From: an uncultured Melioribacter sp.
GTDB taxonomy: Bacteria; Bacteroidota; Ignavibacteria; Kapaibacteriales; Kapaibacteriaceae
NCBI GenBank assembly: GCA_964484755.1
Contig: CAZAGH010000004.1
Coordinates: 28,170-92,169 of the forward strand
DNA: 64,000 nucleotides
Direction: 5' to 3'
The stretch's first letter is position 1. Every line of letters begins with the position of its first letter. The notes below the pieces were generated by a model. It ran no database searches, was not told the DNA's origin, and was given only the letters and a program-made list of their open reading frames with translations. A program made the position numbers and the translations under genes. Below are positions 37,578 through 53,953 of the stretch, in pieces.

Positions 37578-37805
37578 GTTTAGGGTGTGGATATCGTCTG
37601 TAACCCTAATTATTGAGAAAAGGTTACCACATATTTCGGTGTTCATATTTCCCTTTGGTGGGAATTCACCGATAACCTATATTTGCGAGTCTATCTCACT
37701 CCGCGGAGTGCGTACCGACGTGTGTACGCATGTTTGCGAGGAATGGACAGCATTGCTTTTTGGTCGTGGAACAGATCCAAGGCCAGTACAGAATTTGAGG
37801 AGTGC

Positions 37806-38519
37806 ATGAGCACACAAGACATAGACAACATCACTGAAGAGCCAGTATCTGCGGGGCCTGACGCCACAGATGCAGCGGCTGACTTCTTTTCAAGACAGTG
37901 GAAAGTTATCGCTGGAGTACTCGGTGTTGTAGTTGTCGTTGTTGCTGGATACTTCTACATGGAGTACCAAAACAGCGAGTTGAACATCGAGGGCCTTACA
38001 CACCTCTCACGTGTGAGGCTTGCCTATGACATGGGCCAATACGACATGGCGCTCACTGGACAAGGTTTGCCACCTATGGATGGTCAGCCTGTGAAGGGGC
38101 TTGTTGCAATCAGCGATGAGTACTCTGGAACAGCAGCTGGCGAGATGGCGGCGTTAATGGCAGGCAATGCCTACATCAACCTTGGCAAAGCTTCAGAGGC
38201 TACCACACAGTTTGAAAAGGCCTCATCTTCAGATGCTGGTGTTGTTCAAGTTGGTGCCTTGCAAGGACTTGCGGCGGCGCTCGAACTTGGTAAGAACTTC
38301 TCTGAAGCTGCTTCCAAGTACGAAGAAGCTGCGAAAAAGGCAGAGGACACAGGTCTGGAAGAGCAGTGCTACCTCAGCGCGGCAGCGTGTTACGAGGAAG
38401 CCAACAACAAGGATAAGGCGTCAGAATTGTACCGATTGATCGTGAAGAAGTTCGAAATGTCAGAGGTTGCGGCATCCGCAAAATCGGGTCTGGCGCGTCT
38501 TGGCACGGCAATTGATTAG
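37806..38519 (+). CDS. membrane-anchored TPR-like protein (YfgM-like architecture)
   Basis: ORF 37683..38519. ATG at 37806 lies 3 nt after GAGGAG. Acidic N-terminus, a single TM 'WKVIAGVLGVVVVVVAGYFYM', then an Ala-rich helical-repeat ectodomain ('AGEMAALMAGNAYINLGKASEATTQFEKA', 'ALQGLAAALELGKNFSEAASKYEEAAKKA'). Confidence 0.6.
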   Translation: MSTQDIDNITEEPVSAGPDATDAAADFFSRQWKVIAGVLGVVVVVVAGYFYMEYQNSELNIEGLTHLSRVRLAYDMGQYDMALTGQGLPPMDGQPVKGLVAISDEYSGTAAGEMAALMAGNAYINLGKASEATTQFEKASSSDAGVVQVGALQGLAAALELGKNFSEAASKYEEAAKKAEDTGLEEQCYLSAAACYEEANNKDKASELYRLIVKKFEMSEVAASAKSGLARLGTAID

Positions 38520-38609
38520 CAAAATCGGGCGGTTTCGCCATTTTTCTGTTTAGAGTAAATGAAAAGCGTGAAAAAATTAAAGTATAAGGTTTTTACAACT
38601 GGAGGTTGT

Positions 38610-41600
38610 ATGCAACGTTGGTTTCGTCTGAGCAGCTTGCTGCTTGTGCTAACCGCGGCATTTAACGTAGCCCAAGCGGCGTACGTTGAAGTCCGTGGTA
38701 GTCTTCCTCCGGGTGCGGTTCGCGTATTCGTACGTGATACCGTATATCGTATTAGTGGCACGTACACCGTTGGTGGTACGCTTCTGATCGAGCCCGGAAC
38801 AACAGTTGAGTTTATGCCAAACGGTCGTTTGGTTGACTCAACAGGTGGTCGAATCATTGCTGATGGTCGTGCGTCTGCGACGTACAATCCAACAGCGGTG
38901 AATCCACTGGTTCCGCCGTACACTGGTTATGACGACTTGTCATACTTCGGTGCTGCGGGAGTCGTCTCTTCGACGATCTCAACAGAACCTACGATTCACC
39001 CATCGAAGTATTCGACGATCTTTAACGTCGATCTTGGCACGAATGTCAACCTCCAAGGTTTGACACCTGCCCAGGCAATCATGTACAAGGCATCACGCCT
39101 TGAACTCGGATCGGTCATTTCGGCCATCCGTTTGAACCCATGGTTCCGCCCGACAGGTGCTGCTATCAACGTTACACCTGCTCGAATCACATTCAAGGCA
39201 GGTGACGTTAACACGTTCTCACGCGAGTGGGGCCACATCGTGGTTCTGCCGGGTGCACGTGCAGCGTTCTTCCGTGATGTTGACTTTGTCAACTTCCGCA
39301 AGGACACAACAGTAGATAACCGTCCTGTTTACCTTGCGAACAGCAATGGTCAAGCCTTCACGGCAGCGCAAGCAGAAACAGCGAACAATACGCTGCTTGA
39401 TGCAACAAACGGTGGTGGTGGTGCAATCACAACATTCTCGTCACGTACGTGGATTGTTGGATGTAACTTCCGCAACAACATGTCGCGTTATCGTGGTGGT
39501 GCTATCCAGATTCTACAAGCGCCATCTGACATCTATGCTGGAACAGCTCTTCAATTGTACCCGACAGTATCGGCTGCTACAATCAACGCTCTTCCAACAT
39601 ACCCAGCAACGGTCAACCCATTCATGACCGATCCGGTAACGGGTGCTCCAATCGCTTCAGGTCTTAGGATCACAGACTATGTATATGATGCTAACCCAGA
39701 GACAATGACAGATGCAGATCGTCAATCACTTGACGATGCTCGTCTTGCTCTTTACCTTGGTCGTATCCGTCAGTCACGATTCACCGGCAATCATGTATTG
39801 CTTGCAAATGTTGATACGGTCCGCGTAGGCGGTATCCGTGTTGTTACAGATGTAGCTGATCGTCCAGCTACGGTATTCGCGAACACGAATCGTTCACAGA
39901 AGAACGAAGCGTTCGGTGGAGCTATCTACGTTTCGGGTCGTACACCAATGATCGTCGGTATCGGTGTCAACGATTTCCAAGGCAAGGATACGATGGAGTT
40001 CAACAGCAACTATGTTGAAAACCGTCAACCAGCTACACCAAACGGTAATGCGGTATCGCAAGGTGCACGCGGTGGTGCCGTTTATGTTGGCAACCAGACA
40101 AGCGTAATCTTCGCAGGTCGCTACACAACAAACAAGACAGAGACACCATTTATCACAACACTCGCTTCGTCAGGTGCCGCTTCTGTTGGCAACTTCTCGA
40201 AGGGTGGAGCTATCTATGCATCAACGGGTGCATGGCAGATCCAAGTTCGTGGTAATCTTGACAATAACCCACCTACACACTTCCTTGGTAATAGCTCAGG
40301 ACGTGGTGGTGCTATCTTCGTTGAGAACGGTACAAACGACAACGCTGTATCACCTTGGATCGGTGGTTCAGACGGAATCATTACTGTCCGCAACTATGGT
40401 TTCAACATCAAGTTCCGCGACAACCGCGCAACAGTAGATGGTGGTGCTATCTACACAGCACGTAACATGTACATGTATGGTGCTGGTGGTTCATCGGGTC
40501 CACTTTGGATCTATGGCACGAACTATGGTGTAGAGTTCCAAAACAACACAGCCAACTTCTCGGGTGGTGCTATCAGCGTTCAGATTCCACAGAATCTTCC
40601 GATCGCTCGTCGCACACTCCGCTTTGTTCGTGGTCACTTCCTCAATAACCGTGTTGGCCAAGTAGCTGCAAGCCTTACTGGCGAAGTCCGCGGTGGTGGT
40701 GCTCTTTATACGATCAATGCAGACCTTAACGTAGTTAAGGGTGTTGAATTCCGTGCTAACAAGGTATGGAACGGTAATGGTGGTGCTATCGCTGTTGTCA
40801 CACCAGATACGCTTACACGTAAGCGCTTTATGGTTACAGACATGGACGATATCAACTTTGATGGTAACGGTGTAGCTACGGGTTACAACCCACGTAACGA
40901 CATCTTCACGTTCCAAACAGCTTCACCTCGTCCAGACGAGCGCATGCTTACACGTTTCTATGAAAACGAAGCATACGCAAACGCAGATCGTCAAGGTTCA
41001 GGCGCTACACAGCGTGGCGACATCAAGATCACACACCCAGGAACAACACTCCGTGAAAACGGTACAGGTCTTGGTGGTGCTCTTTACATCCTCGATAGCA
41101 TCCGCGTTCGTGTTGACACGTTCTCATTTGATCGTGTACGTATGCAGAACAACGTTGCTTTCAGCGGCGCTGGTATGTACTCAGACAATTATGATCTCAA
41201 GCTTGCTATGGCTCGTTGCTTGATTACAGGCAACAAGGCAACATCGACTATCGGTCGTACGCAAGATGTAGTAGATGGTCCATTGGTTGGCTCAGCAAAT
41301 CCTGCTTCAAGCGACCTTGCTGGTGCAGTATTGTTTGGTGAAGTTACTGGTCCTCTTCCATGGAAGACATACAGCAACGCATCAAACTCGATCTACGATA
41401 ACGATGCTCGCTATATCGTACGCCTTCCAGATGCACAAGACACCAAGGGTGTTCTAGCAGGAACAACTGGTATCGGTTTTGGTGGTGTCGATACTCTCCG
41501 TGGCAACTATTGGGGTCGCACCGAAGCGAACGTTAACACGATCCTTCCAAGCACACCTAACACATCTTCATTTGGTCGTGTTCAGGAAACATTCTTCATC

Positions 41601-44600
41601 GCTGGCAACGGTAAGACGCACATGCGTTTTGTTCGCCAGGGTGGTACAAACCCTACAGAACAAGGACCATTCGAATCAGACTGGCGTTATAACTATACTC
41701 CAGTTCCGATCGGTGTAGTTCCAGACACGCTCCTTCTTGCTGGTCGTATCTATGACATCTTCGATAAGGGTACAGACATCAAGACAGCTGATTATTCAAG
41801 CCGTCGCATGTCTCCTATTGAAGACTTCGCAGTAGGTATCCCTCCAACACTCAAGCTTTACAACGATCCTACGCAGCCATCATACGAGAAGTATGTGAAG
41901 CGCATGACTCGTAACCCGTTCGATGCTGACGTACATGCAGATATCGCAGCGGTTCAAACAGAGTTTGTTGGAAACCACCCTATTGGTTACCCAGTATTCC
42001 TTGAAGCACGTGTTGATTACAGTGGTACTGCCGAAGTAAGCAACAACGATGCACGCGCATTTAACGAGACAGTATTCTTCGTTGTTAACGAGCGCACAGG
42101 TGACTTCATCCGCGTTAACATGCAGCAGAAGACGTTGACAGACTCGATCTTCCGTTCACGTGTTGAACTCGTTCCAGATTCATCTAATGGCGGTGATCCT
42201 AACATCCGTCGTGCATATGAAGGTCTCGCAACGTATGGTACAGGCGCGACACTGTTGTCGTTCCTTGCTGACAATGCTATTGCAGAAGATTCATCAGCTC
42301 TTCAAGGTCGTCGTTGGGAAGGCTCAACACAACTTGGCGAACTTGGTGGTGCAAACTTCCGCCTCGGTAATCGTCCAGCGCTTCCTGTATCAAATAACGG
42401 CAGCGAAACATATTATGGCGGTGAGCGTTATCGCGCACTTCCTGTCCGTGATGGTGACCAAGTCACGATCGTTTCTCGTACGATTCTCTGGAAAGATGGC
42501 GTAGTTGAAGCTATCAAGGGTGCATTGAGTTTCACAGTTGGCAACAACACGAACCCACCTGTGTTTACTGGTTCAGCAGATACGCTTCCAACCTCGCCGC
42601 TTCTCCACCCAGAATACCGTAACCGTGTATTTGTTACAGAGAACCGTCTCTACACGCCTATCACTGCAGCTCAGTCACCACGTGGTGGCGGTCAGCCAAG
42701 CTGGTTCAACGAGCCACCTAGCTATCCATCAGACATCAACAACCAGCCAATCCCTGGTCGTGATCTCTTCGAGCGTGATTCGATCTTCTCGATCACAGCA
42801 GTAGATATCAACAAGTTCTATGATCCACGCGTAGTGCGTAATGCTGGCGACAATGCTCAGCTGTCATATTTCTGGGATATCAAGACTGGTAACAGTGGTC
42901 TTCGCTACTGGTTGCGTGATACGCTGATCCGCGCGAATGCTACGAACAACAACCCAAGCTGGGGTGCAGTCGGCTATCGTATGTTCCGTGGTCGTCCAAT
43001 CAATCCATACATCGTTCCAGGTGGTGAATTGGTTGAAGTGGTTGCCAAGAACTTCCCACCATCAGTTGAACTTGTTGACTCGCTTCGTAAGTCAAACTGG
43101 ACAGACGCAGACATCAGCCGCTGGATCTACACGTATCCATCGTACTTCCACGCACAGGAATACGACAACGATGCTATCCCAGCAGGTCAGCGCAATCCAT
43201 CTAACACGAATGCTCGCTTCTTGCAGCAGGACACAGTTAACTTCGGTTGGTTGGATTCAGTATCATATCAGTTCCGTATCCATGTTGTAGACTCGATGCC
43301 ACGCTTCATCTGGCGTCACAATGCAACGGGTGCAGCAGCTGTAACGTATCAAAACATGCTTCGTGGTGATGTAACGATTGTTCTCGATCCAACAACAACT
43401 GATCCAGATGCATACGATGCAACTACAGGTACATACCGTGATACACTGCGTTACACAACGACAACATCACGTGTAGGCCGCCGTTTCGTCGATACGCGTA
43501 CTAACCCGAATAACATTCTTAATGAAGAGTACAACAACCCTAACACGAACTACAACGATTCGTTGAACATTCACTGGGTTGCAAATCTTGCTGGTCTTCC
43601 AGGTCAAGACTCCCTTCGTTTCCGTGCTGACATCAATACAGACGATGAATTTGAAGATGCAGCAGCAGCTGATGCTAACCGCGCAGTTGTTAAGAAGTTC
43701 GGTGCATGGGACTTCCGCTATGGTAAGACAGCCTACGGTTTCGTTTCTACAGCCGTACGTGAAAACCCATCTGAGACTGTACTTGATAACATCGTACAAG
43801 CTCGTCCGAGCTGGATGGCTACACGTTACATGCGTCAGTACGAGAACCCAGGTCAACAGAGTTTGTTTGGTGCTGACTTCACAACGAAGGGTCAGATCGA
43901 CATTCGTATCGATCGTGCAAATGCACTCGAGCTCCTCAAGCCAGTTAATGACTTCGATCCAGGTAACCCAATCAATGGTGATCTGAACGTCGATACAGTC
44001 ATGACGGTTATCGTAAACGATGGTCACGGTGGCGTGAATACACTCACCCGTCGTCTCTTCGTTAACGTTCAGCCACGTCTGCTTGAAGCCAACCTCGAAG
44101 ATGCAATCGAAGACACAGACTATAATGTACAGTTGACGGATTCAGCACGTCGCATCAAGGTTTACGATCCTAACTTCGGTCAGGTTCAAAACTTCGAACT
44201 CATCTATGTAGATGAGCAGCGTGACAGTATCGCAGTTGACCCATACTTTACAGAAGCTGGTCAGATTGTATTTGATGCATCACGCAAGACAACTCCAGCA
44301 TGGTTGAAGATCAATCCAACAAGCGGTCTGCTTTACGGTAAGCCAACAGTTACAGATCTTCCATACTCAGACACAACAGTAAACGTGACGGTTCTGGTTA
44401 CTGATGCAGGTGGTCTTCGTGACATCCGCACATATACACTGAACGTTCGTGCAGTGAATCACAAGCCAAACCTACTCCAGTCACCAATTATTCGTTGTGT
44501 TGAAGCTGGCAAGGAATACACAGATAAGATCCGTGTGACAGACATTGATCTCAAGCGTAAGCAAGCAGGTAACGAAGAGCTGACATTCACAGTTCTTGAG

Positions 44601-45644
44601 CCAGCAGGTTCATGGACATTTGCACCAGCTAAGCTTTCTAGCCCAATTGCTGATACTCAAGAGGTTACTGTAAGTACATCAAACCTCCAGGGAACTATCG
44701 AAAACGGCCGCATCAAGGTCCGTATCGAAGTAACAGATCGTCAAGGTGAAAAGGATACTCTCACGTATTCAGTAGCGGTATCAGCACAAACACGTTTCTC
44801 AGCGGACATCCGCATCGAGAACGCAATCGGTGGATGGCAGACGCTCACATTCGGTGTCAGCGGAACAGAGATTGCGACACGCGGTGACGAAGCAGCTACT
44901 TTCGGTCGTCTTGATAGCAACTACTGCGAATATGAATTGCCTCCAGTACCATTCATCGATGTATTCGATGCCCGCTGGACAATCCCAACACGCAATGGTA
45001 TCATCCGTAACATCCATCCATATTCAAACACAGCCGGTGAGTCGATCTTCCAAGGTCGCTTCCAAGCTGGTGGTGAAAATGGCGTAAGCTCATCGTACTA
45101 CCCAGTCAAGCTTTCATGGTGCCGTACTCAGATCCCAGCACGTGATGCATCGAACCCAGGTTCATATTACATCCGTGATGACCAGTCAAATGGTGGTCTC
45201 TTTGCCTTCGACATGAAGACAGGCCAAGGCCGTTCGATCTCTTCTGTACAACACCGTGTCTCAGCTGCTGGCGATTGCGATACACTCGTTATCACGTCAA
45301 CCGCAATCGAAGGTTTCATCATTGTGTACGACTTCACAACAGATGTCGAAAACGGTGAAGAAGCTCCATCATCGCTTGCTATCACAGCAACAGCACCAAA
45401 TCCATTCACGACATCAACAAATATCAGCTTCGCTGTTCCGACACCGTCGATGGTAGCAGTTGAGATCTACGATGCAATTGGAAATCGCGTTGCTACTCTG
45501 ACAAATGATGTGTACAACGCCGGTATTCATTCAGTAGAATGGAATGGCGCTGCAAACGGTGTTGCACTTCCGAACGGTATCTACACGGTTCGTGTATCGG
45601 ACGGAACAAACTCGACTTCACAGCAGGTCGTACTCGTACGCTAA
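38610..45644 (+). CDS. giant (2344 aa) secreted adhesin-like protein: Pmp-type parallel beta-helix repeats, two cadherin-like/He_PIG Ig modules, T9SS C-terminal sorting domain
   Basis: ORF 38559..45644. ATG at 38610 lies 4 nt after GGAGG. Signal peptide MQRWFRLSSLLLVLTAAFNVA|QA. At least 10 GGA[ILV] motifs paired with FxxN (see the repeat feature). Ig module: 'TPAWLKINPTSGLLYGKPTVTDL..VTVLVTDAGGLRDIRTYTLNVRAVNHKP'. Tail: 'APNPFTTSTNISFAVPTPSMVAVEIYDAIGNRVATL...LPNGIYTVRVSDGTNSTSQQVVLVR'. Confidence 0.85.
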   Translation: MQRWFRLSSLLLVLTAAFNVAQAAYVEVRGSLPPGAVRVFVRDTVYRISGTYTVGGTLLIEPGTTVEFMPNGRLVDSTGGRIIADGRASATYNPTAVNPLVPPYTGYDDLSYFGAAGVVSSTISTEPTIHPSKYSTIFNVDLGTNVNLQGLTPAQAIMYKASRLELGSVISAIRLNPWFRPTGAAINVTPARITFKAGDVNTFSREWGHIVVLPGARAAFFRDVDFVNFRKDTTVDNRPVYLANSNGQAFTAAQAETANNTLLDATNGGGGAITTFSSRTWIVGCNFRNNMSRYRGGAIQILQAPSDIYAGTALQLYPTVSAATINALPTYPATVNPFMTDPVTGAPIASGLRITDYVYDANPETMTDADRQSLDDARLALYLGRIRQSRFTGNHVLLANVDTVRVGGIRVVTDVADRPATVFANTNRSQKNEAFGGAIYVSGRTPMIVGIGVNDFQGKDTMEFNSNYVENRQPATPNGNAVSQGARGGAVYVGNQTSVIFAGRYTTNKTETPFITTLASSGAASVGNFSKGGAIYASTGAWQIQVRGNLDNNPPTHFLGNSSGRGGAIFVENGTNDNAVSPWIGGSDGIITVRNYGFNIKFRDNRATVDGGAIYTARNMYMYGAGGSSGPLWIYGTNYGVEFQNNTANFSGGAISVQIPQNLPIARRTLRFVRGHFLNNRVGQVAASLTGEVRGGGALYTINADLNVVKGVEFRANKVWNGNGGAIAVVTPDTLTRKRFMVTDMDDINFDGNGVATGYNPRNDIFTFQTASPRPDERMLTRFYENEAYANADRQGSGATQRGDIKITHPGTTLRENGTGLGGALYILDSIRVRVDTFSFDRVRMQNNVAFSGAGMYSDNYDLKLAMARCLITGNKATSTIGRTQDVVDGPLVGSANPASSDLAGAVLFGEVTGPLPWKTYSNASNSIYDNDARYIVRLPDAQDTKGVLAGTTGIGFGGVDTLRGNYWGRTEANVNTILPSTPNTSSFGRVQETFFIAGNGKTHMRFVRQGGTNPTEQGPFESDWRYNYTPVPIGVVPDTLLLAGRIYDIFDKGTDIKTADYSSRRMSPIEDFAVGIPPTLKLYNDPTQPSYEKYVKRMTRNPFDADVHADIAAVQTEFVGNHPIGYPVFLEARVDYSGTAEVSNNDARAFNETVFFVVNERTGDFIRVNMQQKTLTDSIFRSRVELVPDSSNGGDPNIRRAYEGLATYGTGATLLSFLADNAIAEDSSALQGRRWEGSTQLGELGGANFRLGNRPALPVSNNGSETYYGGERYRALPVRDGDQVTIVSRTILWKDGVVEAIKGALSFTVGNNTNPPVFTGSADTLPTSPLLHPEYRNRVFVTENRLYTPITAAQSPRGGGQPSWFNEPPSYPSDINNQPIPGRDLFERDSIFSITAVDINKFYDPRVVRNAGDNAQLSYFWDIKTGNSGLRYWLRDTLIRANATNNNPSWGAVGYRMFRGRPINPYIVPGGELVEVVAKNFPPSVELVDSLRKSNWTDADISRWIYTYPSYFHAQEYDNDAIPAGQRNPSNTNARFLQQDTVNFGWLDSVSYQFRIHVVDSMPRFIWRHNATGAAAVTYQNMLRGDVTIVLDPTTTDPDAYDATTGTYRDTLRYTTTTSRVGRRFVDTRTNPNNILNEEYNNPNTNYNDSLNIHWVANLAGLPGQDSLRFRADINTDDEFEDAAAADANRAVVKKFGAWDFRYGKTAYGFVSTAVRENPSETVLDNIVQARPSWMATRYMRQYENPGQQSLFGADFTTKGQIDIRIDRANALELLKPVNDFDPGNPINGDLNVDTVMTVIVNDGHGGVNTLTRRLFVNVQPRLLEANLEDAIEDTDYNVQLTDSARRIKVYDPNFGQVQNFELIYVDEQRDSIAVDPYFTEAGQIVFDASRKTTPAWLKINPTSGLLYGKPTVTDLPYSDTTVNVTVLVTDAGGLRDIRTYTLNVRAVNHKPNLLQSPIIRCVEAGKEYTDKIRVTDIDLKRKQAGNEELTFTVLEPAGSWTFAPAKLSSPIADTQEVTVSTSNLQGTIENGRIKVRIEVTDRQGEKDTLTYSVAVSAQTRFSADIRIENAIGGWQTLTFGVSGTEIATRGDEAATFGRLDSNYCEYELPPVPFIDVFDARWTIPTRNGIIRNIHPYSNTAGESIFQGRFQAGGENGVSSSYYPVKLSWCRTQIPARDASNPGSYYIRDDQSNGGLFAFDMKTGQGRSISSVQHRVSAAGDCDTLVITSTAIEGFIIVYDFTTDVENGEEAPSSLAITATAPNPFTTSTNISFAVPTPSMVAVEIYDAIGNRVATLTNDVYNAGIHSVEWNGAANGVALPNGIYTVRVSDGTNSTSQQVVLVR
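39411..41190 (+). repeat. polymorphic-membrane-protein (Pmp)-type repeat region, GGA[ILV] / FxxN
   Basis: GGA[ILV] motifs: GGAITTF, GGAIQIL, GGAIYVS, GGAVYVG, GGAIYAS, GGAIFVE, GGAIYTA, GGAISVQ, GGALYTI, GGAIAVV, GGALYIL. They are interleaved with FRNN, FTGN, FNSN, FLGN, FRDN, FQNN, FLNN and FRAN. The 12-mer GGTGGTGCTATC occurs exactly at least 5 times (near 39494, 40305, 40440, 40563 and 40779). Confidence 0.8.
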
Positions 45645-45724: not shown

Positions 45725-47764
45725 ATGAAGAAACAGGTATTGATTGCCTCGGCGATTGTACTCTGTTCATTCGCGATCGGTGCAGTAGAGGGCGTGGCAC
45801 AGCAGATCTTTAATCAGTTCCGCCAGCCAAAGCTCGTAGTCGGTCTCCCATATAGGGATATCGATGCCTGCCCTACGTCGAGCCTGAACAAGACAGTTAT
45901 AGCTCCGTCGCAATTCACATTGCCGCCAACATTCGTGAATGATTTGGATGATGGTTATTCGTACATCCAGTTCCCGAATGGAATCACCTATAACTACAAC
46001 GGCCGCGTTTATAGCGGTGTGTATGTAAGTATCAACGGTTTCTTGACATTTGATAACACTAAGCTGGTTCCTGCAAAGCAGTCAATCGGTTTGTTTATCA
46101 ACTCGTCTTCATATCCTGATAACGTTGTTTCTCCATATTGGGGAGATCACCGTTACCGTACAGCGACAGACATCGCACAGGGCTTCATGCCGTCGCAGAT
46201 CTCTTGGGTTATTGATGTAGATCGTGATGAAAATTGCGATACAATCAAGCCTGTTCGTCGCTGCGTTATCGTTCAGTGGAAGAACCTTAACATCAATGAT
46301 GCTAGCATCAATTCCAGCGTTGGCAACTTCCAAGCACGCCTGTATCTGGGTGGCGCAGAGAAGAACAACCAAGGTGAAGTTGAATTTGCTTATGGTCAAG
46401 TTGGTGGAAATCCTTATACCAACAACACAACCGTCGTAACGCGCGGTGCAACAGTTGGTATCAAGGGTGACGGTGGCTTCCCTGGATTTTTGTCAGACTT
46501 CTGGAATGGTTTGATCTGGCAACCAAATGCTGGTTCAAACAGTCGTACGGACTCTACATCGGTTTGGCAGCCATCAGGTGGCCGCTCAGATGCCCGCATT
46601 CGCTTTGAGTCGATTGTTTATCTGACGTTTAGCGACTGGGGTTACGGTGATGCCGATACTTCTGGTGCAGCAGCAGAGCGTCATGCAGATCTTCCTCAGA
46701 ATCGTCGTGTAACAGTAAACGATGCGCGCACAATCATGCGTTCAATCGTTACACGCGTGCCACTTGATTCAGTATGGAAGCGTCAAGCATACCTTGCAGA
46801 TGTTAACCACAGTGGTCGTTACTACTACACGAAGCTCAAGAGAGATTTCTCTGGAGACTCAACTGTTGGAAATCAGATCATCATTTGGCGTCGTACAATC
46901 GACGTAGAACAATTCTTCCCAGGTCAGGGCGTTGGCCCGAACACTGGTAAGCAAGTTGTCCGCGTCATGTTTGAAGGCGATGGTCTCTATGGTGTTGACG
47001 GTAAGGCACCAGATGTTAGCAATCTCAACCAGATTTACTATGAGTGCAATGAATATGACGCAGGTCTCATCATGCGTTATATCTCAGGTCGTCTGCCATA
47101 CCTCCCATGGATCTATGACAACGATACACTCGGACCAGATTTTGGTAAGGTTGTTGAAGTACGTGAAGCTTCTAACGTAAAGTTTGGCTCACCGTCATCT
47201 ATCGGTAACGGTCTCGTTCGTGTACCAGTATACCTTAACGGCTTCCACAAGGGTGCAATTGGTGTGAGCTTCAGCACAGACGCGGAAGTGGTAGATGTTG
47301 TAAAGGCAAGCAATAGCGTTCTTGTTGATGCTTCCAAGGATGTTGTAGCTATCGCAGGTAATGGCGTTTTTGAAGCTGGTCAACCAGTTGCGTTTGTTAC
47401 CATGAAGGAATCAGCTATCGTAAAGATCTCTGACGTCCGTTTCAACGATGCAATTGCTCCTGGGCACACGATCAACATGATCGAATCCGACAATGCTTCA
47501 ATCGCTGTTTATCCTAATCCAGTATCATCGTCAATGAACCTTGCGTTCAATGTTGTAGAAGCTGGTACGGTTAACGTTTCCGTCTTTGATGCATTTGGCA
47601 AGCTTGTTGCTAACGTCGCTACAGAAAACGTAACTCCAGGTACATTCAGTGCTAATTGGGACGGAACAGATGTTAACGGCAATGCCGTAGCAGCTGGATC
47701 GTATCTTGTACGTATCGAAGGTGCCGGATTGAGCGCTTCGCAGATGTTCACGGTTGTCCGTTAA
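45725..47764 (+). CDS. secreted T9SS-sorted protein with NIDO-like, dockerin-like and cohesin-like segments
   Basis: 679 aa. GGAG lies upstream of the ATG. Signal peptide MKKQVLIASAIVLCSFAIGAVEGVA|QQ. NIDO-like: 'YNYNGRVYSGVYVSINGFLTFD...VVSPYWGDH'. Ca-loop-like 'GDADTSG' and 'ADVNHSG' with helices 'VNDARTIMRSIV' and 'EYDAGLIMRYISG'. Cohesin-like: 'LVRVPVYLNGFHKGAIGVSFSTDAEVVDVV'. Tail: 'IAVYPNPVSSSMNLAF..VSVFDAFGKLV...GSYLVRIEGAGLSASQMFTVVR' (47501-47761). Confidence 0.75.
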   Translation: MKKQVLIASAIVLCSFAIGAVEGVAQQIFNQFRQPKLVVGLPYRDIDACPTSSLNKTVIAPSQFTLPPTFVNDLDDGYSYIQFPNGITYNYNGRVYSGVYVSINGFLTFDNTKLVPAKQSIGLFINSSSYPDNVVSPYWGDHRYRTATDIAQGFMPSQISWVIDVDRDENCDTIKPVRRCVIVQWKNLNINDASINSSVGNFQARLYLGGAEKNNQGEVEFAYGQVGGNPYTNNTTVVTRGATVGIKGDGGFPGFLSDFWNGLIWQPNAGSNSRTDSTSVWQPSGGRSDARIRFESIVYLTFSDWGYGDADTSGAAAERHADLPQNRRVTVNDARTIMRSIVTRVPLDSVWKRQAYLADVNHSGRYYYTKLKRDFSGDSTVGNQIIIWRRTIDVEQFFPGQGVGPNTGKQVVRVMFEGDGLYGVDGKAPDVSNLNQIYYECNEYDAGLIMRYISGRLPYLPWIYDNDTLGPDFGKVVEVREASNVKFGSPSSIGNGLVRVPVYLNGFHKGAIGVSFSTDAEVVDVVKASNSVLVDASKDVVAIAGNGVFEAGQPVAFVTMKESAIVKISDVRFNDAIAPGHTINMIESDNASIAVYPNPVSSSMNLAFNVVEAGTVNVSVFDAFGKLVANVATENVTPGTFSANWDGTDVNGNAVAAGSYLVRIEGAGLSASQMFTVVR

Positions 47765-47779
47765 CAACTGCCGCTAAGA

Positions 47780-48910
47780 ATGAAATATTTGTTGTTAGTT
47801 GTGCTGGCCGTCTCTACGGCGGCCAGCACTCTGGCAGCAGCAGACACACTCTACATTCGGTCTTATCAAATAGTAGATGTGTGTTCGAATGATCGGCGTT
47901 GGCTGCTAGCCGTAGACCTTGGTAGAGTGCTTCCAAGCGACAGCCTAGTGTCCTTTGACATTACAATAGGATATGATCGAACAAAGCTTCGGCCAACCGA
48001 CGTTTTAAAAGAAGGGACGTTATCGGCAGGAATGTCCTACGCTCCTTTCCTCAACACAGTTGTGCCAAACGAGATGCGTATCGCAGGTGGTAACATCATC
48101 AAGACTGTTAGTGGAACGGAACCGTTAGTAGCTGTTACAGGCGACTTTCTTGGCGACTGCAACGATGTTGACACATTGGGTTATCCTTGGCCAGCTACGT
48201 TTAACTCGGAATTCAAGAAAAGGCTGACCGTTATACGCCGAGATAGTGTAATAGCAACAGCGAAAGCGAAGCAGAATCCAGAGTCTGGTATGTATGCTTT
48301 GGAACGTATCGTAACAGTCGGCCCAGACGAAAACACCTTCGAACTAAAGGTGAAGGGGGCTAAACTGAAATCCGATAGTTCACTACACCGCTTTACATTT
48401 ACAAGCTCAAAGGCGACTATGGATGTGGTTCAAGTTGGCGGGGTGAAGGGTATCACAGATGTTGATACGACTACATCAGACGAGGACATTGTTGTTACAG
48501 GTCGAGTTGTAGATGCCAGCCCAGAGTTTCTGGTAAGGTATAGAGTACAGAAAGACAATAGGCCCGATTCTGTTACAATCACGTTGCGTACAGAGAATCT
48601 TTCTGAGTGTAATTGTTCGAATCCGGCATTGCGCGACACAGTCGATATCAAGATCAGTCCTACTGTAAGTGTACCATCTTTTGATGAACACGTTGAAATT
48701 GTACAAATACACAACGATGTAGTTACTATTCAATGTGACCATGAAGAGATGAAAACGATACAGATCTTTTCAACGTACGGGCAGCTTGTACAAGCAACTG
48801 TTCTCTCTGCGGGAGATAAATCTGTATCAACATCGAATCTGGCCAACGGTAGTTTTTTTGTAAGAACCACCTGCGGCAAACGACAACACGTTAACATGAT
48901 TTTGAAATGA
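47780..48910 (+). CDS. secreted T9SS-sorted protein with an N-terminal cohesin-like module
   Basis: 376 aa. Signal peptide MKYLLLVVLAVSTAASTLAAA. 'RWLLAVDLGRVLPSDSLVSFDITIGYDRTKLRPTDVLKEGTL' fits the cohesin strand pattern. Tail: 'IQIFSTYGQLVQATVLSAGDKSVSTSNLANGSFFVRTTCGKRQHVNMILK'. Its codon usage differs from its neighbours (uses CGG, AGA, AGG, ATA). Confidence 0.7.
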   Translation: MKYLLLVVLAVSTAASTLAAADTLYIRSYQIVDVCSNDRRWLLAVDLGRVLPSDSLVSFDITIGYDRTKLRPTDVLKEGTLSAGMSYAPFLNTVVPNEMRIAGGNIIKTVSGTEPLVAVTGDFLGDCNDVDTLGYPWPATFNSEFKKRLTVIRRDSVIATAKAKQNPESGMYALERIVTVGPDENTFELKVKGAKLKSDSSLHRFTFTSSKATMDVVQVGGVKGITDVDTTTSDEDIVVTGRVVDASPEFLVRYRVQKDNRPDSVTITLRTENLSECNCSNPALRDTVDIKISPTVSVPSFDEHVEIVQIHNDVVTIQCDHEEMKTIQIFSTYGQLVQATVLSAGDKSVSTSNLANGSFFVRTTCGKRQHVNMILK

Positions 48911-48945
48911 ACAAACATCTGATCAACTCATCTGAGGAGTGTATT

Positions 48946-51900
48946 ATGAATCGTCGTTATGCTCTATGGGGCGGCGGTACCGCAATTGGTGCCGTACTCC
49001 TCCTTGCAGCATTAATCGGCATCGGTTCGACTGTGCTCATGGCACAGACGAACAAGCCTGAGCTGCCAACGCTCTCGTTAACTGGAGACGGAGCAAGTTG
49101 GAAAAGGGAAGTTTATCCTGATGGTCGTATCTGGTCATCAAGCCGCGGTCCCAATGGCGACCGTATGCTCCTCGTTCCAGTCTTCATCAAGAACTGCTGG
49201 CGCACAACGTCGCAGTACGAAGCTTTCCCTATTTACAGCTTCAAGTTCAAGGTACAGTACGATAGTTCTGCACTTGAATATGTTGGTGTAGAGAAGAATG
49301 GCCCACTTCGTGGACCACAATTGACACCGGTATCGTGCTTGGCGAAGGATTTTGAATTCACATCGCACGTAGCACGCGACGTTACTTTCCAGAGCGTTAT
49401 CAATGCTCCAACGCAAAACCGTCTGCGTGGTAAGCGCGTTCTCGTTACTGGTACGTCTTCAAAGGCACTTCCACAAACGGGTGATGTCACGCAGCCATGT
49501 GATCAGCGTCCATACGTAGAGCTTGTGTATTTGCGTTTCAAGGTTGTAGCTAACCCAGCTATCGATCCGGTAAGCTCACGTACACCTGTTATCCTCACGA
49601 ACGACACGTTGTTCTACAACGACTTCCAAGTTGGTAAGGAAATTGTATTCCCTGGTGATGTTGCTCCAGGTGAATTTGCAGGTCTTGGTGGTGTAGACAA
49701 CTACTTCCTCGACAACAACGGTCTCGAGCAGATCCGTGATCCACTTCGTCCATCAAAGCCAGGTATGATCTGGGTTGAAATCACGGATGCTACTCCACGT
49801 TTGTCATTCACAAACGTTGCTAACCCAGCTTTCCGTCTTGTTGACTCAGTAGATCAATCGAATGGTTCACAGTGGTACGTTGTAGATCCTATCACGGTTG
49901 ATTACCAAACACCATACGAAGATCAAGTAAACGGTATCGGTACACGTGACGTTGACGTTATCAATGCTAACGCCGGTACTCGCGCTTACGAGATCATGGT
50001 TCAATCTGATTCAAAGTGGCTCAAGTTCAAGTCGTTTCTCAAGGGTGGCGGCGGACAAACAGAATTGAATCCATTCCCGAATCCAGTACGTGAAGGTTAT
50101 ATCCAGTTTATGGATAAGGCCATCTTGGGCGCTATCGGCGATCCTCTTGGCAATCCTACGACTGGTCAGCGTGACTTGAACCTCCGCATCATTTGCGATC
50201 CAAACGAGCTTCCTAACGGTGATGAGCAAGAAGTTTGTGGTACGTATGTTGGTTACCTGACATTCAAGTCAGCTTCCCTCGAAGTACCTAACGTTCGCCT
50301 CAAGGTTACGTTCATCTACTTCCGTTCACCATATGAGCCAAACGTATTTGACGAGAACGACAACTGGAAGCGCAGCCAAGAGTTCCTTGGTCGTGGTATC
50401 ACACTTCAGGTTCGTAACTCTAACGTTCCAAACGATATCACATACATGGTCTTCGGTGTAGGTAACCGCGCTACAGACGCATGTGATACACTGTTTGGTG
50501 AAACAATCTATCCAAACGCACTGACTTCATTTGGTGCTCGTTGGTATCCAAAGAACGCTGATGGCTCATTCATCTACCAGAACGGTCTTGGAGACCTGTG
50601 GGCAGCTACAGCGCAACGTCCAAAGTCATCTTCACGTGATATTCGTTCTATCTACAGCGACACGACACTGGCTTACACATGCCGTTTCGACGCAGGTGGC
50701 GACATCAACTATCCAATCGTAGTTGCATGGGATACAGATGAGTTCTCACCAGGTTCAGAGCTCTTCATCCGCGACACACTGAACGGTTCACGCTTTAACA
50801 TCAACATGCGTGCCGGTACAGTTCTCGGTGGTACACGTCAGTCATACACAATTCGTGATGCCGACATCAAGGCGTTCGTTATTGAGTACACACTTCCAAA
50901 GGTTGCTCGCTTCCCAGTTATCAACAAGGGATGGAACCTCCTTTCAGTACCTGTAAACCCGTCGTCAAGCTACTGGCGTGATGTGTTCAAGAATGCCTTG
51001 AACATCCCTATTCGCTTTGCCCAGAACCTTTATCAGAACAACGAAACAAACCTCGCTCCAGGCGTTGGCTACTTCGTGAAGTACTCTGACGATGTAGATA
51101 AGACGATCGCTGGTTCACGCATCCGCGCGATCAACGAAGGCAGCTTCCCTACACGTCTCTATGATGGTTGGAACACAATTGGCTCACTTTCATTCCCAAC
51201 TTCAACACAGAATGTTAGCGTTACTGTCTTCGGTAACTCAGGCACATTCCCAGAGATCGTTGGCGACATCTATGGTTATGTAACTAACCGTGGTTATCAG
51301 GCAGTTACAGAGATCGAACCAGGTCTCGGATACTGGATGAAGGTTAAGGGTCAAGCTTACCTCAACATCGCTTCTGGTAAGGGTAGCATCAACAGCGCAG
51401 TTGTTCGTGAAAACGTTGAATCAAACGCAACACGTGTAACTGTAAGCGATGCAGAAAACAATGTTGGTACAGTATTCGTAGCAGCAAAGGGGCTTGTTGA
51501 CAACAAGATGATGTTCGAATTGCCACCAACGCCTCCAAACAATCTCTTCGACGTACGTTTCACAAGCCAAACGAGCGTAGAAGATGAAGCTAACCCAACG
51601 ATCCAGATCCAGGGTGTAACGTTCCCAGTAACGGTTGCGATCAACAATCCTAACCAGAATTACACGATCGTTAACCCAATCTCGGGTGCTGTTCTCGGCA
51701 CTGCTATCGCTGGCCGCGTGAACTCTGTAACAATCTCAGATGCACGTACACCGTACATCCGTCTGATGGGTCAGGAAGCAAATGTTGAAACACTCAGCGT
51801 AGTTGCTACACCAAACCCAGTTTCAGCAAACGGTGTTGTCAATGTTACAGTACCAGCTAACGGTCAAGTAACAGTCGGTCTCTATGATGCAGTTGGTACA

Positions 51901-52047
51901 CTGGTATCAACTCTCATGGATGAAGTAAAGACATCAGGTGTTTACGGTGTTGATCTCAATGCTGCAAACCTCGCACAAGGTCGTTACATCATCAAGGCCA
52001 CAGTTAATGGCGTTACAGCAACAACTGCAGTAACAGTCGTCCGCTAA
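48946..52047 (+). CDS. large (1033 aa) secreted T9SS-sorted protein with an N-terminal cohesin-like module
   Basis: ORF 48907..52047. ATG at 48946 lies 6 nt after GAGGAG. Signal peptide 'MNRRYALWGGGTAIGAVLLLAALIGIGSTVLMA|Q'. 'RMLLVPVFIKNCW...FPIYSFKFKVQYDSSALEYVGVEKNG'. Later, a 'GWNLLSVPVNP...PGVGYFVKY...GWNTIGSL...PGLGYWMKV' module. Tail: 'ATPNPVSANGVVNV..VGLYDAVGTLV...GRYIIKATVNGVTATTAVTVVR' (51793-52044). Confidence 0.75.
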   Translation: MNRRYALWGGGTAIGAVLLLAALIGIGSTVLMAQTNKPELPTLSLTGDGASWKREVYPDGRIWSSSRGPNGDRMLLVPVFIKNCWRTTSQYEAFPIYSFKFKVQYDSSALEYVGVEKNGPLRGPQLTPVSCLAKDFEFTSHVARDVTFQSVINAPTQNRLRGKRVLVTGTSSKALPQTGDVTQPCDQRPYVELVYLRFKVVANPAIDPVSSRTPVILTNDTLFYNDFQVGKEIVFPGDVAPGEFAGLGGVDNYFLDNNGLEQIRDPLRPSKPGMIWVEITDATPRLSFTNVANPAFRLVDSVDQSNGSQWYVVDPITVDYQTPYEDQVNGIGTRDVDVINANAGTRAYEIMVQSDSKWLKFKSFLKGGGGQTELNPFPNPVREGYIQFMDKAILGAIGDPLGNPTTGQRDLNLRIICDPNELPNGDEQEVCGTYVGYLTFKSASLEVPNVRLKVTFIYFRSPYEPNVFDENDNWKRSQEFLGRGITLQVRNSNVPNDITYMVFGVGNRATDACDTLFGETIYPNALTSFGARWYPKNADGSFIYQNGLGDLWAATAQRPKSSSRDIRSIYSDTTLAYTCRFDAGGDINYPIVVAWDTDEFSPGSELFIRDTLNGSRFNINMRAGTVLGGTRQSYTIRDADIKAFVIEYTLPKVARFPVINKGWNLLSVPVNPSSSYWRDVFKNALNIPIRFAQNLYQNNETNLAPGVGYFVKYSDDVDKTIAGSRIRAINEGSFPTRLYDGWNTIGSLSFPTSTQNVSVTVFGNSGTFPEIVGDIYGYVTNRGYQAVTEIEPGLGYWMKVKGQAYLNIASGKGSINSAVVRENVESNATRVTVSDAENNVGTVFVAAKGLVDNKMMFELPPTPPNNLFDVRFTSQTSVEDEANPTIQIQGVTFPVTVAINNPNQNYTIVNPISGAVLGTAIAGRVNSVTISDARTPYIRLMGQEANVETLSVVATPNPVSANGVVNVTVPANGQVTVGLYDAVGTLVSTLMDEVKTSGVYGVDLNAANLAQGRYIIKATVNGVTATTAVTVVR

Positions 52048-52070
52048 GCCTTATCGTCGAAAACAAAGAA

Positions 52071-52098
52071 GGGCAGCAGATTTCTGCTGCCCTTTTTT
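52071..52098 (+). terminator. strong rho-independent terminator
   Basis: GGGCAGCAG-ATTT-CTGCTGCCC stem-loop (52071-52092), followed by TTTTTT (52093-52098), 24 nt after the stop. Confidence 0.9.
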
Positions 52099-52120
52099 AT
52101 TCATAGAAGGATTGATTGCT

Positions 52121-52885
52121 ATGAAACATGTTCTCACCCTGCTCCTGATGTGTTCATTTGTTGCGAGAGCACAACAGGTGGAGATACCGATTGCTATTGC
52201 GAATACGGTGAATGATCAGACAAAGACAGCCGTTCTGACGGTTGCGGCACATCCCAAGGGAACGAACGAACTTGATACTGCTTTAGGAGAGCGTGAGATT
52301 CCTACTCTTCCTCCGCCAGCAGGCGTGTTCATTGCCTATACCATTCCTCCGAGTGCAGAGTATTTGTGGTTAAGCCCCTTAGACGTGCGAAAACTTGAAG
52401 TAGGTAAGCAACACCTCGTTGAGTACACAATTGGAATGACGTGGAACGCCGGCAAACTGGATGTTTCGTGGGGACCTATTCCGAATCTCGTGGACTCTGC
52501 ATATCTCGTTGATGTGGTTTCGGACTTTCCCGACAACTTTATCAAAGTCAAGCTCGAGCCCAATAAGACGTATTCAACCATAAACACAGCAATAACCAAG
52601 CTCAAACTCTTGGTTTGGTACAATGCTACATCGCTTAACGTCGCAGAGGATGCATCATCATTACGCTTGTATCCTGTGCCGTTTGACGAAGAGCTCATTG
52701 TTGAAGGGGCCAGTATTGGCTCAATTTTCAACGTGGTAGATGTTTCTGGTTCCGTAATTTTTACCGGTACCATAGACCAACAGCGACAGATAATTCGCAC
52801 AGCTGAGTTGCCAACTGGAATGTACGCGTTGCAATTGCGGAATCACGACGGCTCTGTCGTAACAAGAAAACTTCTACGCCGATAA
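52121..52885 (+). CDS. small secreted T9SS-sorted protein
   Basis: ORF 52112..52885, ATG at 52121. Signal peptide MKHVLTLLLMCSFVARA|QQ. Tail: 'LRLYPVPFDEELIVEG..FNVVDVSGSVIFTG...PTGMYALQLRNHDGSVVTRKLLRR' (52661-52882). Confidence 0.7.
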   Translation: MKHVLTLLLMCSFVARAQQVEIPIAIANTVNDQTKTAVLTVAAHPKGTNELDTALGEREIPTLPPPAGVFIAYTIPPSAEYLWLSPLDVRKLEVGKQHLVEYTIGMTWNAGKLDVSWGPIPNLVDSAYLVDVVSDFPDNFIKVKLEPNKTYSTINTAITKLKLLVWYNATSLNVAEDASSLRLYPVPFDEELIVEGASIGSIFNVVDVSGSVIFTGTIDQQRQIIRTAELPTGMYALQLRNHDGSVVTRKLLRR

Positions 52886-52903: not shown

Positions 52904-53953
52904 ATGAGCGAAGAGAGAGAACAGCGGCCACGGTCGCAGAATCCACATAGAAGAAGACCTCCACATTGGCGTCCTTCTGGCAATCGACAAGAGCGCACCG
53001 AGTCATCGAGGAATGTATCCGGTTCTGTTTCCGTCGTCATTCCTCTCCTAAACGAGGAAGAGTCTCTACCAGAACTATCGCGTCAACTCGAGTCAGTACT
53101 CGAACGCATCGCGCGTGGACGCTATGAAGTGATTTTCATTGACGATGGATCGACCGATGGTTCATACAATGTGATCAAGGATATCCATGCTCGTAATAAG
53201 AGGTTCAAGGCAATCCGCTTTCGTACGAACCATGGGAAGTCAGCGGCACTCGCCGTAGGCTTCGAAGAGGCCTCGGGAGACTTCGTCATTACCATGGATG
53301 CGGACCTTCAGGACGACCCTAACGAGATACCTGCACTGATCGCAAAACTTGAAGAAGGGTATGATCTTGTTTCCGGTTGGAAACGCAAGAGATATGACCC
53401 ATGGCACAAGACGTTGCCCTCGAAGTTGTTCAATGCGGTAACGTCGAAGATGAGTGGACTCAAACTGCACGACTTCAATTGTGGATTGAAGGCATATCGC
53501 GGTGAGGTTACGAAGACTGTTCAAGTGTATGGCGAAATGCACCGATACATTCCAGCTCTCGCACACTGGGAAGGATTCCGTGTAACGGAGTTGCCCGTGC
53601 AGCACAAAGCCCGCCAATTTGGCGTGTCTAAGTTTGGGATGAGCCGTTTCCTCAAGGGCTATCTGGATTTATTGACGGTGATGTTCACAACGCGCTACAT
53701 CAAGCGTCCGCTACACTTTTTCGGGGCAGTGGGTTCGTTGTTTGCCGTCCTCGGTTTTTCAACCGATCTCTACCTGGTCATTGAAAAATGGGTGTTTCAA
53801 ACACCATTTAGCCAGCGACCATTTCTGTTGCTCTTTGGTATCGCGATGATCATAGTGGGCGTACAGCTCATTTCAATTGGCCTCGTTGGCGAATTGATCG
53901 TCAAGAACAACCTAAGTCAACAACGCTTTAGTATTCGTGAGCGACTTACGTAA
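52904..53953 (+). CDS. family 2 glycosyltransferase, polyprenyl-phosphate sugar transferase type (GtrB/ArnC/DPM1-like), with an Arg-rich N-terminal extension
   Basis: 349 aa. 'VSVVIPLLNEEESLPEL', 'FIDDGSTDGS', 'MDADLQDDP' (DxD). Two C-terminal TM helices, 'FFGAVGSLFAVLGF' and 'LLLFGIAMIIVGVQLISIGLVGELI'. N-terminal extension: 'MSEEREQRPRSQNPHRRRPPHWRPSGNRQERTE'. Confidence 0.85.
   Translation: MSEEREQRPRSQNPHRRRPPHWRPSGNRQERTESSRNVSGSVSVVIPLLNEEESLPELSRQLESVLERIARGRYEVIFIDDGSTDGSYNVIKDIHARNKRFKAIRFRTNHGKSAALAVGFEEASGDFVITMDADLQDDPNEIPALIAKLEEGYDLVSGWKRKRYDPWHKTLPSKLFNAVTSKMSGLKLHDFNCGLKAYRGEVTKTVQVYGEMHRYIPALAHWEGFRVTELPVQHKARQFGVSKFGMSRFLKGYLDLLTVMFTTRYIKRPLHFFGAVGSLFAVLGFSTDLYLVIEKWVFQTPFSQRPFLLLFGIAMIIVGVQLISIGLVGELIVKNNLSQQRFSIRERLT

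Follow-up and report, generated by a model that had tools for sequence, protein, structure and literature searches.

A conserved giant beta-helix protein with a type IX secretion tail and a probable structural role at the surface of Kapabacteria

The polymorphic membrane proteins (Pmp) of Chlamydia are type Va autotransporters that carry a pair of short motifs, GGA[ILV] and FxxN, on a predicted parallel beta-helix held outward by a C-terminal anchor. The motifs are not confined to that group: fewer than one third of the UniProt members of the corresponding Pfam repeat family, Chlam_PMP (PF02415), are chlamydial (PMC11166332), and beta-helices with the motif pair are known from over 100 species outside the Chlamydia, among them archaea, Phycisphaerae and Trichomonas, with published modelling placing the motifs inside the helix and not at a binding surface (PMC10715098). 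Here we describe a gene for a 2,344-aa precursor, the giant protein, in which such repeats are joined to a C-terminal sorting domain of the type IX secretion system (T9SS). It lies on the forward strand of a 64,000-nt stretch of DNA from an uncultured Melioribacter sp. (assembly GCA_964484755.1, contig CAZAGH010000004.1, positions 28,170 to 92,169), referred to below as the window. Our literature searches returned no study of the giant-protein family or of a Kapabacteria T9SS cargo.

For very large T9SS-dependent surface proteins, three described systems offer themselves for comparison. TfsA and TfsB of Tannerella forsythia are T9SS-exported surface-layer (S-layer) proteins, large and abundant, whose genes are adjacent and whose C-terminal domain is of the T9SS kind; together they make up the outermost coat of the cell. 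They are built from immunoglobulin (Ig)-like domains and do not have a long beta-helix head, and we liken the giant protein to them as a proposed functional analogy only. SprB of Flavobacterium is a giant T9SS-associated surface filament with a shaft of Ig domains. GhpA, the grappling-hook protein of Aureispira (PDB 9flp), is likewise a very large T9SS-associated surface protein with an Ig-domain shaft, and its neck is among the structural matches to the C-terminal half of the giant protein; this match reflects the common Ig fold only (template modelling (TM) score 0.12-0.14), and there is no sign here of a role in motility or predation.

We consider it reasonably probable that the giant protein is an abundant structural part of a lineage-wide, T9SS-exported surface coat or complex and not a variable adhesin, because its gene is single-copy and of fixed length, is conserved at the level of housekeeping genes, shares the codon preferences of the genes for EF-Tu and GroEL and is always followed by the same four T9SS cargo genes. 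The features of the gene are listed below; residue numbers throughout count from nucleotide 38559, the start of the stop-to-stop open reading frame (ORF), and not from the Met codon at 38610.

38610..45644, + strand: giant gene, encoding the 2,344-aa precursor; stop-to-stop ORF from 38559, with the conserved Met codon at 38610 taken as the start
38601..38605, + strand: Shine-Dalgarno sequence GGAGG, 4 nt 5' of the start codon, invariant in 55/55 orthologs
38610..38678, + strand: Sec signal peptide MQRWFRLSSLLLVLTAAFNVAQA, read by eye, with predicted cleavage after AQA
38679..41423, + strand: N-terminal beta-helix (solenoid) head, aa ~41-955, from AlphaFold2 (AF2) and Foldseek
39417..41084, + strand: Pmp-type repeat zone with 11 GGA[ILV] and paired FxxN motifs, from the motif count, PF02415 and TIGR01376
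41424..43988, + strand: conserved middle region, aa ~956-1810, with mixed alpha/beta domains at low to moderate AF2 confidence
43989..44858, + strand: string of Ig-like beta-sandwiches, aa ~1811-2100, from He_PIG, AF2 and Foldseek
45036..45338, + strand: beta-sandwich before the sorting tail, aa ~2160-2260, from AF2 strands and BLAST to the neighbouring cargos
45396..45644, + strand: T9SS type A C-terminal sorting domain, aa 2280-2358, and the stop codon, from TIGR04183 and FlgD_ig

An ortholog is present as a single copy in 47 of 151 genomes of the class. Of 17 genomes sampled from the window's own order 16 have it, and it extends to two further families. The close relatives are freshwater metagenome bins named Candidatus Kapaibacterium, Kapabacteria or Ignavibacteria. 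This uncharacterised protein of ~2,350 residues, found in nearly every sampled genome of its order, heads a fixed block of five cargo genes in Kapabacteria, a widespread uncultured lineage of freshwater and sediment. Compared with the nearest species the giant protein is 96% identical, the E1 dehydrogenase encoded next door 97% and the fourth cargo of the block (1046 aa) 99%; the giant, 679-aa and 1046-aa genes together range from 93 to 99%, and the two small cargos reach 71% (376 aa) and 87% (257 aa). Judged by these identities, the giant gene and the 1046-aa cargo match the E1 dehydrogenase in conservation, with the two small cargos drifting. In a principal component analysis of codon usage over the ORFs of the genome the giant and 1046-aa genes lie at one extreme together with EF-Tu, GroEL, RpoC, EF-G and the ATP synthase beta subunit (AtpD), and when these five genes are taken as the reference for a codon adaptation index the giant gene ranks 8th, the 1046-aa cargo 10th and the 679-aa cargo 41st of 1,333 ORFs; the two small cargos (47780-48910 and 52112-52885) rank 1291 and 1298. 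The gene order, which runs from a tetratricopeptide repeat (TPR) protein gene through the giant gene and the 679-, 376-, 1046- and 257-aa cargos to a family 2 glycosyltransferase (GT2), is kept in ~55 loci down to 36% identity, and all four downstream cargo genes encode T9SS tails. This synteny is suggestive of an assembled structure.

The coding sequence lies in one intact frame, 38559..45644 (+), with 2361 open codons. Full-length orthologs of 2,320-2,390 aa exist, and in an alignment of 55 full-length orthologs Met 38610 is the sole conserved start; because it is conserved in all 55 and preceded by the invariant GGAGG we place the start of translation there, as the earlier note on this DNA had done. 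The signal peptide MQRWFRLSSLLLVLTAAFNVAQA (23 residues) combines a basic start with a hydrophobic core and an AQA cleavage motif, and is conserved in the same 55 orthologs, as judged by eye. At the other end of the protein the earlier note on this DNA, which was made from the letters without database searches, had read a T9SS type A tail, and this reading is borne out: TIGR04183 scores 33.4 bits against a cut-off of 23 over aa 2280-2358 (40.3 bits in the genome scan), FlgD_ig scores 36.5 bits against 27 on the same tail, and the C-terminal peptide quoted in that note is present in the translated ORF. The genome to which the window belongs, a 2.39-Mb bin of 94% completeness, contains ~95 ORFs that end in a TIGR04183 tail, or roughly one in every 25 kb. 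Our search for T9SS machinery covered the SprA translocon and the PorU sortase and recovered both, SprA as matches of 642, 201 and 49 bits within one 2,264-aa frame (893 bits summed) and PorU at 833 bits against a cut-off of 420. Proteins of this organism evidently reach the surface by T9SS as a rule, and any surface beta-helix would therefore be expected to carry a tail of the TIGR04183 type.

For structure prediction we built two 47-sequence alignments from the DNA of the window and of the orthologous loci, and modelled each half of the protein separately with AF2. The model of residues 24-1200 has a predicted TM score (pTM) of 0.78, with a predicted local distance difference test score (pLDDT) of ~90 over aa ~43-955 and a regular pattern of short strands. 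When it was compared with the PDB using Foldseek, the informative top matches were all right-handed beta-helix proteins (Klebsiella K1 capsule lyase, tailspikes, PL6 alginate lyases, Ag43, EspP, pectin methylesterase and rhombotarget A), the best of them at a non-significant E value of 0.027 with TM scores of 0.17/0.28; a search of the viral library BFVD (best E 5.5e-3) added nothing, returning only non-significant beta-helix matches. The AF2 model and the exclusive presence of beta-helices at the top of the Foldseek results support assignment of aa ~41-955 to the beta-helix fold class, with no close structural relative; because the matches are non-significant, a specific enzyme or adhesin relative cannot be named. 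The fold class that the earlier note had predicted, there as a right-handed parallel beta-helix, is supported as a solenoid. As a separate observation, some distant orthologs are longer, at 2,650-2,900 aa, and contain within the beta-helix region an insert of ~370 aa that matches Ycf48/BNR propellers (PF14870, PF15902; loci L049 10028-15106 and L056 10052-14887); this distant form is also carried by a contig of 5.46 Mb.

The model of residues 1162-2361 has a mean pLDDT of 74 and consists of mixed alpha/beta domains, several Ig-like sandwiches, a further sandwich and the tail. He_PIG scores 28.2 bits against a cut-off of 24, with its best match at aa 1903-1963 (nt 44265-44447), and two He_PIG stretches are found when the segment is scanned alone (E 4.6e-10), in agreement with the two Ig modules proposed in the earlier note. 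Foldseek matches to this half include cadherin, titin strings, the GhpA neck and the S-layer protein SbsB at E values of 1e-12 to 1e-8, which is a generic Ig-string signal. The middle region (~850 aa, aa ~956-1810) has no Pfam family and no PDB sequence match. Pfam scans of the N-terminal 267 aa and of two middle segments gave no credible family, and when both halves were compared with PDB sequences, by sequence and by profile, the only matches were of the tail to FlgD Ig domains. Within the middle region the stretch EQGPFES...DIFDKGTDIKTADYSSRRMSPIEDF (aa ~1035-1090, window ~41660-41830) ranks with the best-conserved parts of the protein and contains many invariant residues; its AF2 pLDDT is only 30-45 despite this conservation, and it may be a partner-binding or metal-binding site.

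How closely does the head resemble a chlamydial Pmp? The motif pair itself is there. The earlier note had described at least 11 GGA[ILV] motifs interleaved with FxxN, and we count 11 GGA[ILV] between aa 287 and 839 (nt 39417-41084), together with 11 FxxN in that zone, most units running FxxN, 5-20 residues, GGA[ILV], which is the order of the Pfam model. PF02415 scores 33.6 bits against a cut-off of 20.6 and NCBIfam TIGR01376 scores 21.1 bits against 15, so that these two and TIGR04183, the three profile hidden Markov models by which that note proposed to check its reading, are all above cut-off. The resemblance ends with the motifs. At E<=1 the whole-protein Pfam scan lists only FlgD_ig, Chlam_PMP, He_PIG and Por_Secre_tail; the Pmp middle domain PF07548 was found neither in that scan nor in the segment scans, and the autotransporter barrel PF03797 was found neither in the giant protein at E<=1, as the earlier note had claimed for its C-terminus, nor anywhere in the 2.39-Mb genome. 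In contrast to the Pmp, which form a polymorphic family of 9 to 21 members, the giant protein is encoded by one conserved gene per genome (PF02415 has a single locus in this one), lacks both the middle domain and the beta-barrel translocator and is predicted to be exported by T9SS. It should not be filed as a Pmp, because only one of four defining features is shared and the middle domain, the barrel and the polymorphic paralog family are absent. The label 'Chlamydia-type' was thus overstated: GGA[ILV]/FxxN is a generic beta-helix repeat and not a mark of chlamydial ancestry.

Nor is the joining of such repeats to a T9SS tail unusual. In a PF02415 scan of 300 genomes drawn evenly from Bacteroidota we kept the non-orthologous ORFs with intact C-termini, which come from other families of the phylum; the 20 of 301 genomes with a match are a lower bound, the 19-position model being insensitive at genome scale (it missed orthologs in sister genomes). 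TIGR04183 is above cut-off in all nine of the ORFs kept and TIGR01376 in seven; NF041518 ('choice-of-anchor Q') matches eight, five of them above cut-off. These Bacteroidota T9SS type A cargos have the same layout as the giant protein, with a signal peptide, a GGA/FxxN beta-helix and a C-terminal TIGR04183 tail. The NCBI records already label its orthologs 'T9SS type A sorting domain-containing protein' and carry PF02415 as a precomputed match. A Pmp-type beta-helix with a T9SS tail is a routine, already catalogued combination, and of the earlier suggestion that a passenger architecture had been re-plumbed onto another secretion system the components remain (beta-helix, Ig modules and T9SS tail, with no barrel) and the special event is not supported, given that nine of nine other cargos are built alike. 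The giant protein belongs to an uncharacterised family of an ordinary, common protein kind. It differs from the sampled cargos in that NF041518 is not among its NCBIfam matches at E<=1, in being much longer (2,344 aa) with ~850 aa of unassigned conserved sequence, and in being a single-copy, order-wide ortholog within a fixed five-cargo block and not a lineage-variable paralog.

On the structural reading, and by analogy with other T9SS cargos (PMC11285876), Sec would export the precursor with removal of the 23-residue signal peptide, the type A C-terminal domain would bring the folded protein to the SprA translocon, and PorU would cut off the tail and probably join the C-terminus so exposed to a lipopolysaccharide anchor in the outer membrane. 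At the cell surface the tail end of the protein would be proximal, and a stalk of ~1,300 aa of Ig-like and uncharacterised domains would hold out a rigid beta-helix of ~900 aa, in which the GGA[ILV]/FxxN motifs would be buried structural elements of the rungs.

Three other readings deserve to be weighed against this one. One is a Pmp-like variable adhesin, whose beta-helix would bind host or particle surfaces, as has been proposed for chlamydial Pmps, and would gain or lose rungs in frame for surface variation through the repeated 12-mers that encode GGAI, the in-frame changes being those suggested in the earlier note. The motif pair and the PF02415 and TIGR01376 matches are real, and so is the repetition: the 12-mer GGTGGTGCTATC, said to recur at least five times, occurs exactly five times in the window, always in the giant gene and in frame, where shuffled sequences lead one to expect 0.01 occurrences. 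Much of this follows from how the gene is spelled. GGT accounts for 73% of its Gly codons, ATC for 80% of its Ile codons and GCT for 39% of its Ala codons, so that any GGAI site has a 0.17 chance of the exact 12-mer, and five or more of eight sites is a mild excess over the codon-usage expectation (P = 0.005). Among orthologs the 12-mer is the commonest of many synonymous spellings (62 of 262 sites), and an ortholog 97% identical to the giant protein retains it exactly at only two of seven GGAI sites. Its recurrence results from strong codon bias in sequence that encodes a conserved peptide motif. The expected instability is not seen either. Each of the 11 motif positions is retained across 55 orthologs, some with as little as 37% identity, and the comparison of repeat length among relatives that the earlier note had proposed revealed no polymorphism (the zone measures 617-627 aa in every ortholog with >=63% identity, those at 97, 92, 91 and 89% included). 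Tandem Repeats Finder returned nothing relevant on the giant gene, and in a direct-repeat search the repeated DNA ended with the 12-14 nt coding for GGAI. In-frame expansion and contraction, which the note had inferred from the 12-mers, is refuted by the fixed number and positions of the motifs, by the shortness of the repeats and by the loss of the 12-mer at 97% identity. The gene is also a single copy and not a member of a paralog family, its conservation equals that of its housekeeping neighbours, and the motifs are modelled inside the helix and not at binding surfaces (PMC10715098). The part of this reading that concerns variation is largely refuted, and we regard the adhesin as a whole as very unlikely. 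The locus serves as a negative example, in which short repeated codon strings for a structural motif do not make a contingency locus.

A surface enzyme that acts on polysaccharide is unlikely too: here the helix would act as a lyase or hydrolase, like those of pectate lyases or tailspikes, and T9SS would tether it to the cell for feeding on algal or bacterial exopolysaccharide. Its best Foldseek matches are indeed capsule and alginate lyases, phage depolymerases, pectin methylesterase and carrageenase, many Asp, Arg, Lys and His residues are invariant along the helix, and the T9SS cargos of Bacteroidota are often glycan-degrading enzymes. The same matches, however, are non-significant (E>=0.027, TM<=0.28) and reflect a common fold, the adhesins Ag43, EspP and EtpA appearing in the same list; no catalytic Pfam or NCBIfam family is matched at E<=1, and codon adaptation at the level of EF-Tu together with presence in nearly all sampled genomes of the order fits a structural protein better than a substrate-specific enzyme. 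The tail might instead serve for export only, with the protein shed to the medium or to outer-membrane vesicles, for instance as a matrix or aggregation factor. Release and lipid anchoring are both possible fates of a T9SS cargo after PorU cleavage (PMC11285876), and the sequence does not tell them apart. We nonetheless give release a small probability, since a long Ig-like stalk beside the tail is the usual layout of anchored surface proteins and co-conservation with four tagged proteins suggests an assembled structure, although both points are indirect.

Certain observations also tell against the structural role that we prefer. The beta-helix assignment draws on Foldseek matches of which the best, at E 0.027, is not significant, and AF2 can over-predict solenoids for repeat proteins (bioRxiv 10.1101/2024.10.30.621056), a concern lessened here because the repeats are degenerate and the model is backed by a real alignment. 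The Pfam tail model Por_Secre_tail (PF18962) scores 24.2 bits, just below its cut-off of 27. The ~850-aa middle region might harbour a catalytic or binding function on which the true role of the protein depends. High abundance is a prediction from codon usage, and on its sequence the giant protein might be either anchored or released by PorU.

If the giant protein is structural, its neighbours may be part of the same structure. We tentatively suggest, as a possibility that falls short of being probable, that it and the downstream cargos, above all those of 679 and 1046 aa, build one highly expressed, Kapabacteria-wide, T9SS-exported surface structure such as an S-layer-like coat or fibril, with the beta-helix outermost, the TPR protein perhaps helping and the 376- and 257-aa cargos as exchangeable accessories. 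Were the block to form the outer coat, the encounters of these cells with particles, phages and grazers would be defined by it, and the small number of surface layers known to be assembled by T9SS would gain one based on a beta-helix. The neighbouring features are as follows.

37683..38519, + strand: TPR protein gene, syntenic with the giant gene in nearly all loci
38528-38545: small hairpin and T-run after the TPR stop codon; orthologs keep the hairpin with differing stem sequences
45725..47764, + strand: second T9SS cargo, 679 aa, syntenic, with high codon adaptation
47780..48910, + strand: third T9SS cargo, 376 aa, syntenic, fast-evolving, with low codon adaptation
48907..52047, + strand: fourth T9SS cargo, 1046 aa, syntenic, matching the giant gene in conservation and codon adaptation
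52069-52094: strongest terminator-like hairpin of the block, directly following the 1046-aa gene
52112..52885, + strand: fifth T9SS cargo, 257 aa, fast-evolving, with low codon adaptation
52904-53953: GT2 glycosyltransferase (116.9 bits), directly 3' of the fifth cargo, syntenic in most loci

BLAST among the five cargos shows that the sequence common to them is confined to the tail and a short stretch before it; the similarity of the giant protein to its 679-aa and 1046-aa neighbours begins upstream of the tail. Pfam scans of the four neighbouring cargos with their tails removed gave no credible family. The GT2 glycosyltransferase could glycosylate the cargos or build their anchor. Several other T9SS cargos of the genome (for example contig positions C37:712-2043 and C3:14271-18989) are likewise among its most codon-adapted genes. 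A sigma-70 promoter scan was uninformative, with fewer matches than in shuffled sequence. The retention of the hairpin at 38528-38545 in orthologs with different stems suggests that a terminator or attenuator separates the TPR gene from the giant gene. The 30-nt leader TAAGGTTTTTACAACTGGAGGTTGTATG (window 38580-38612) is almost identical among orthologs with >=63% amino acid identity and could be a conserved translation-initiation region or a promoter-proximal element of a highly expressed gene.

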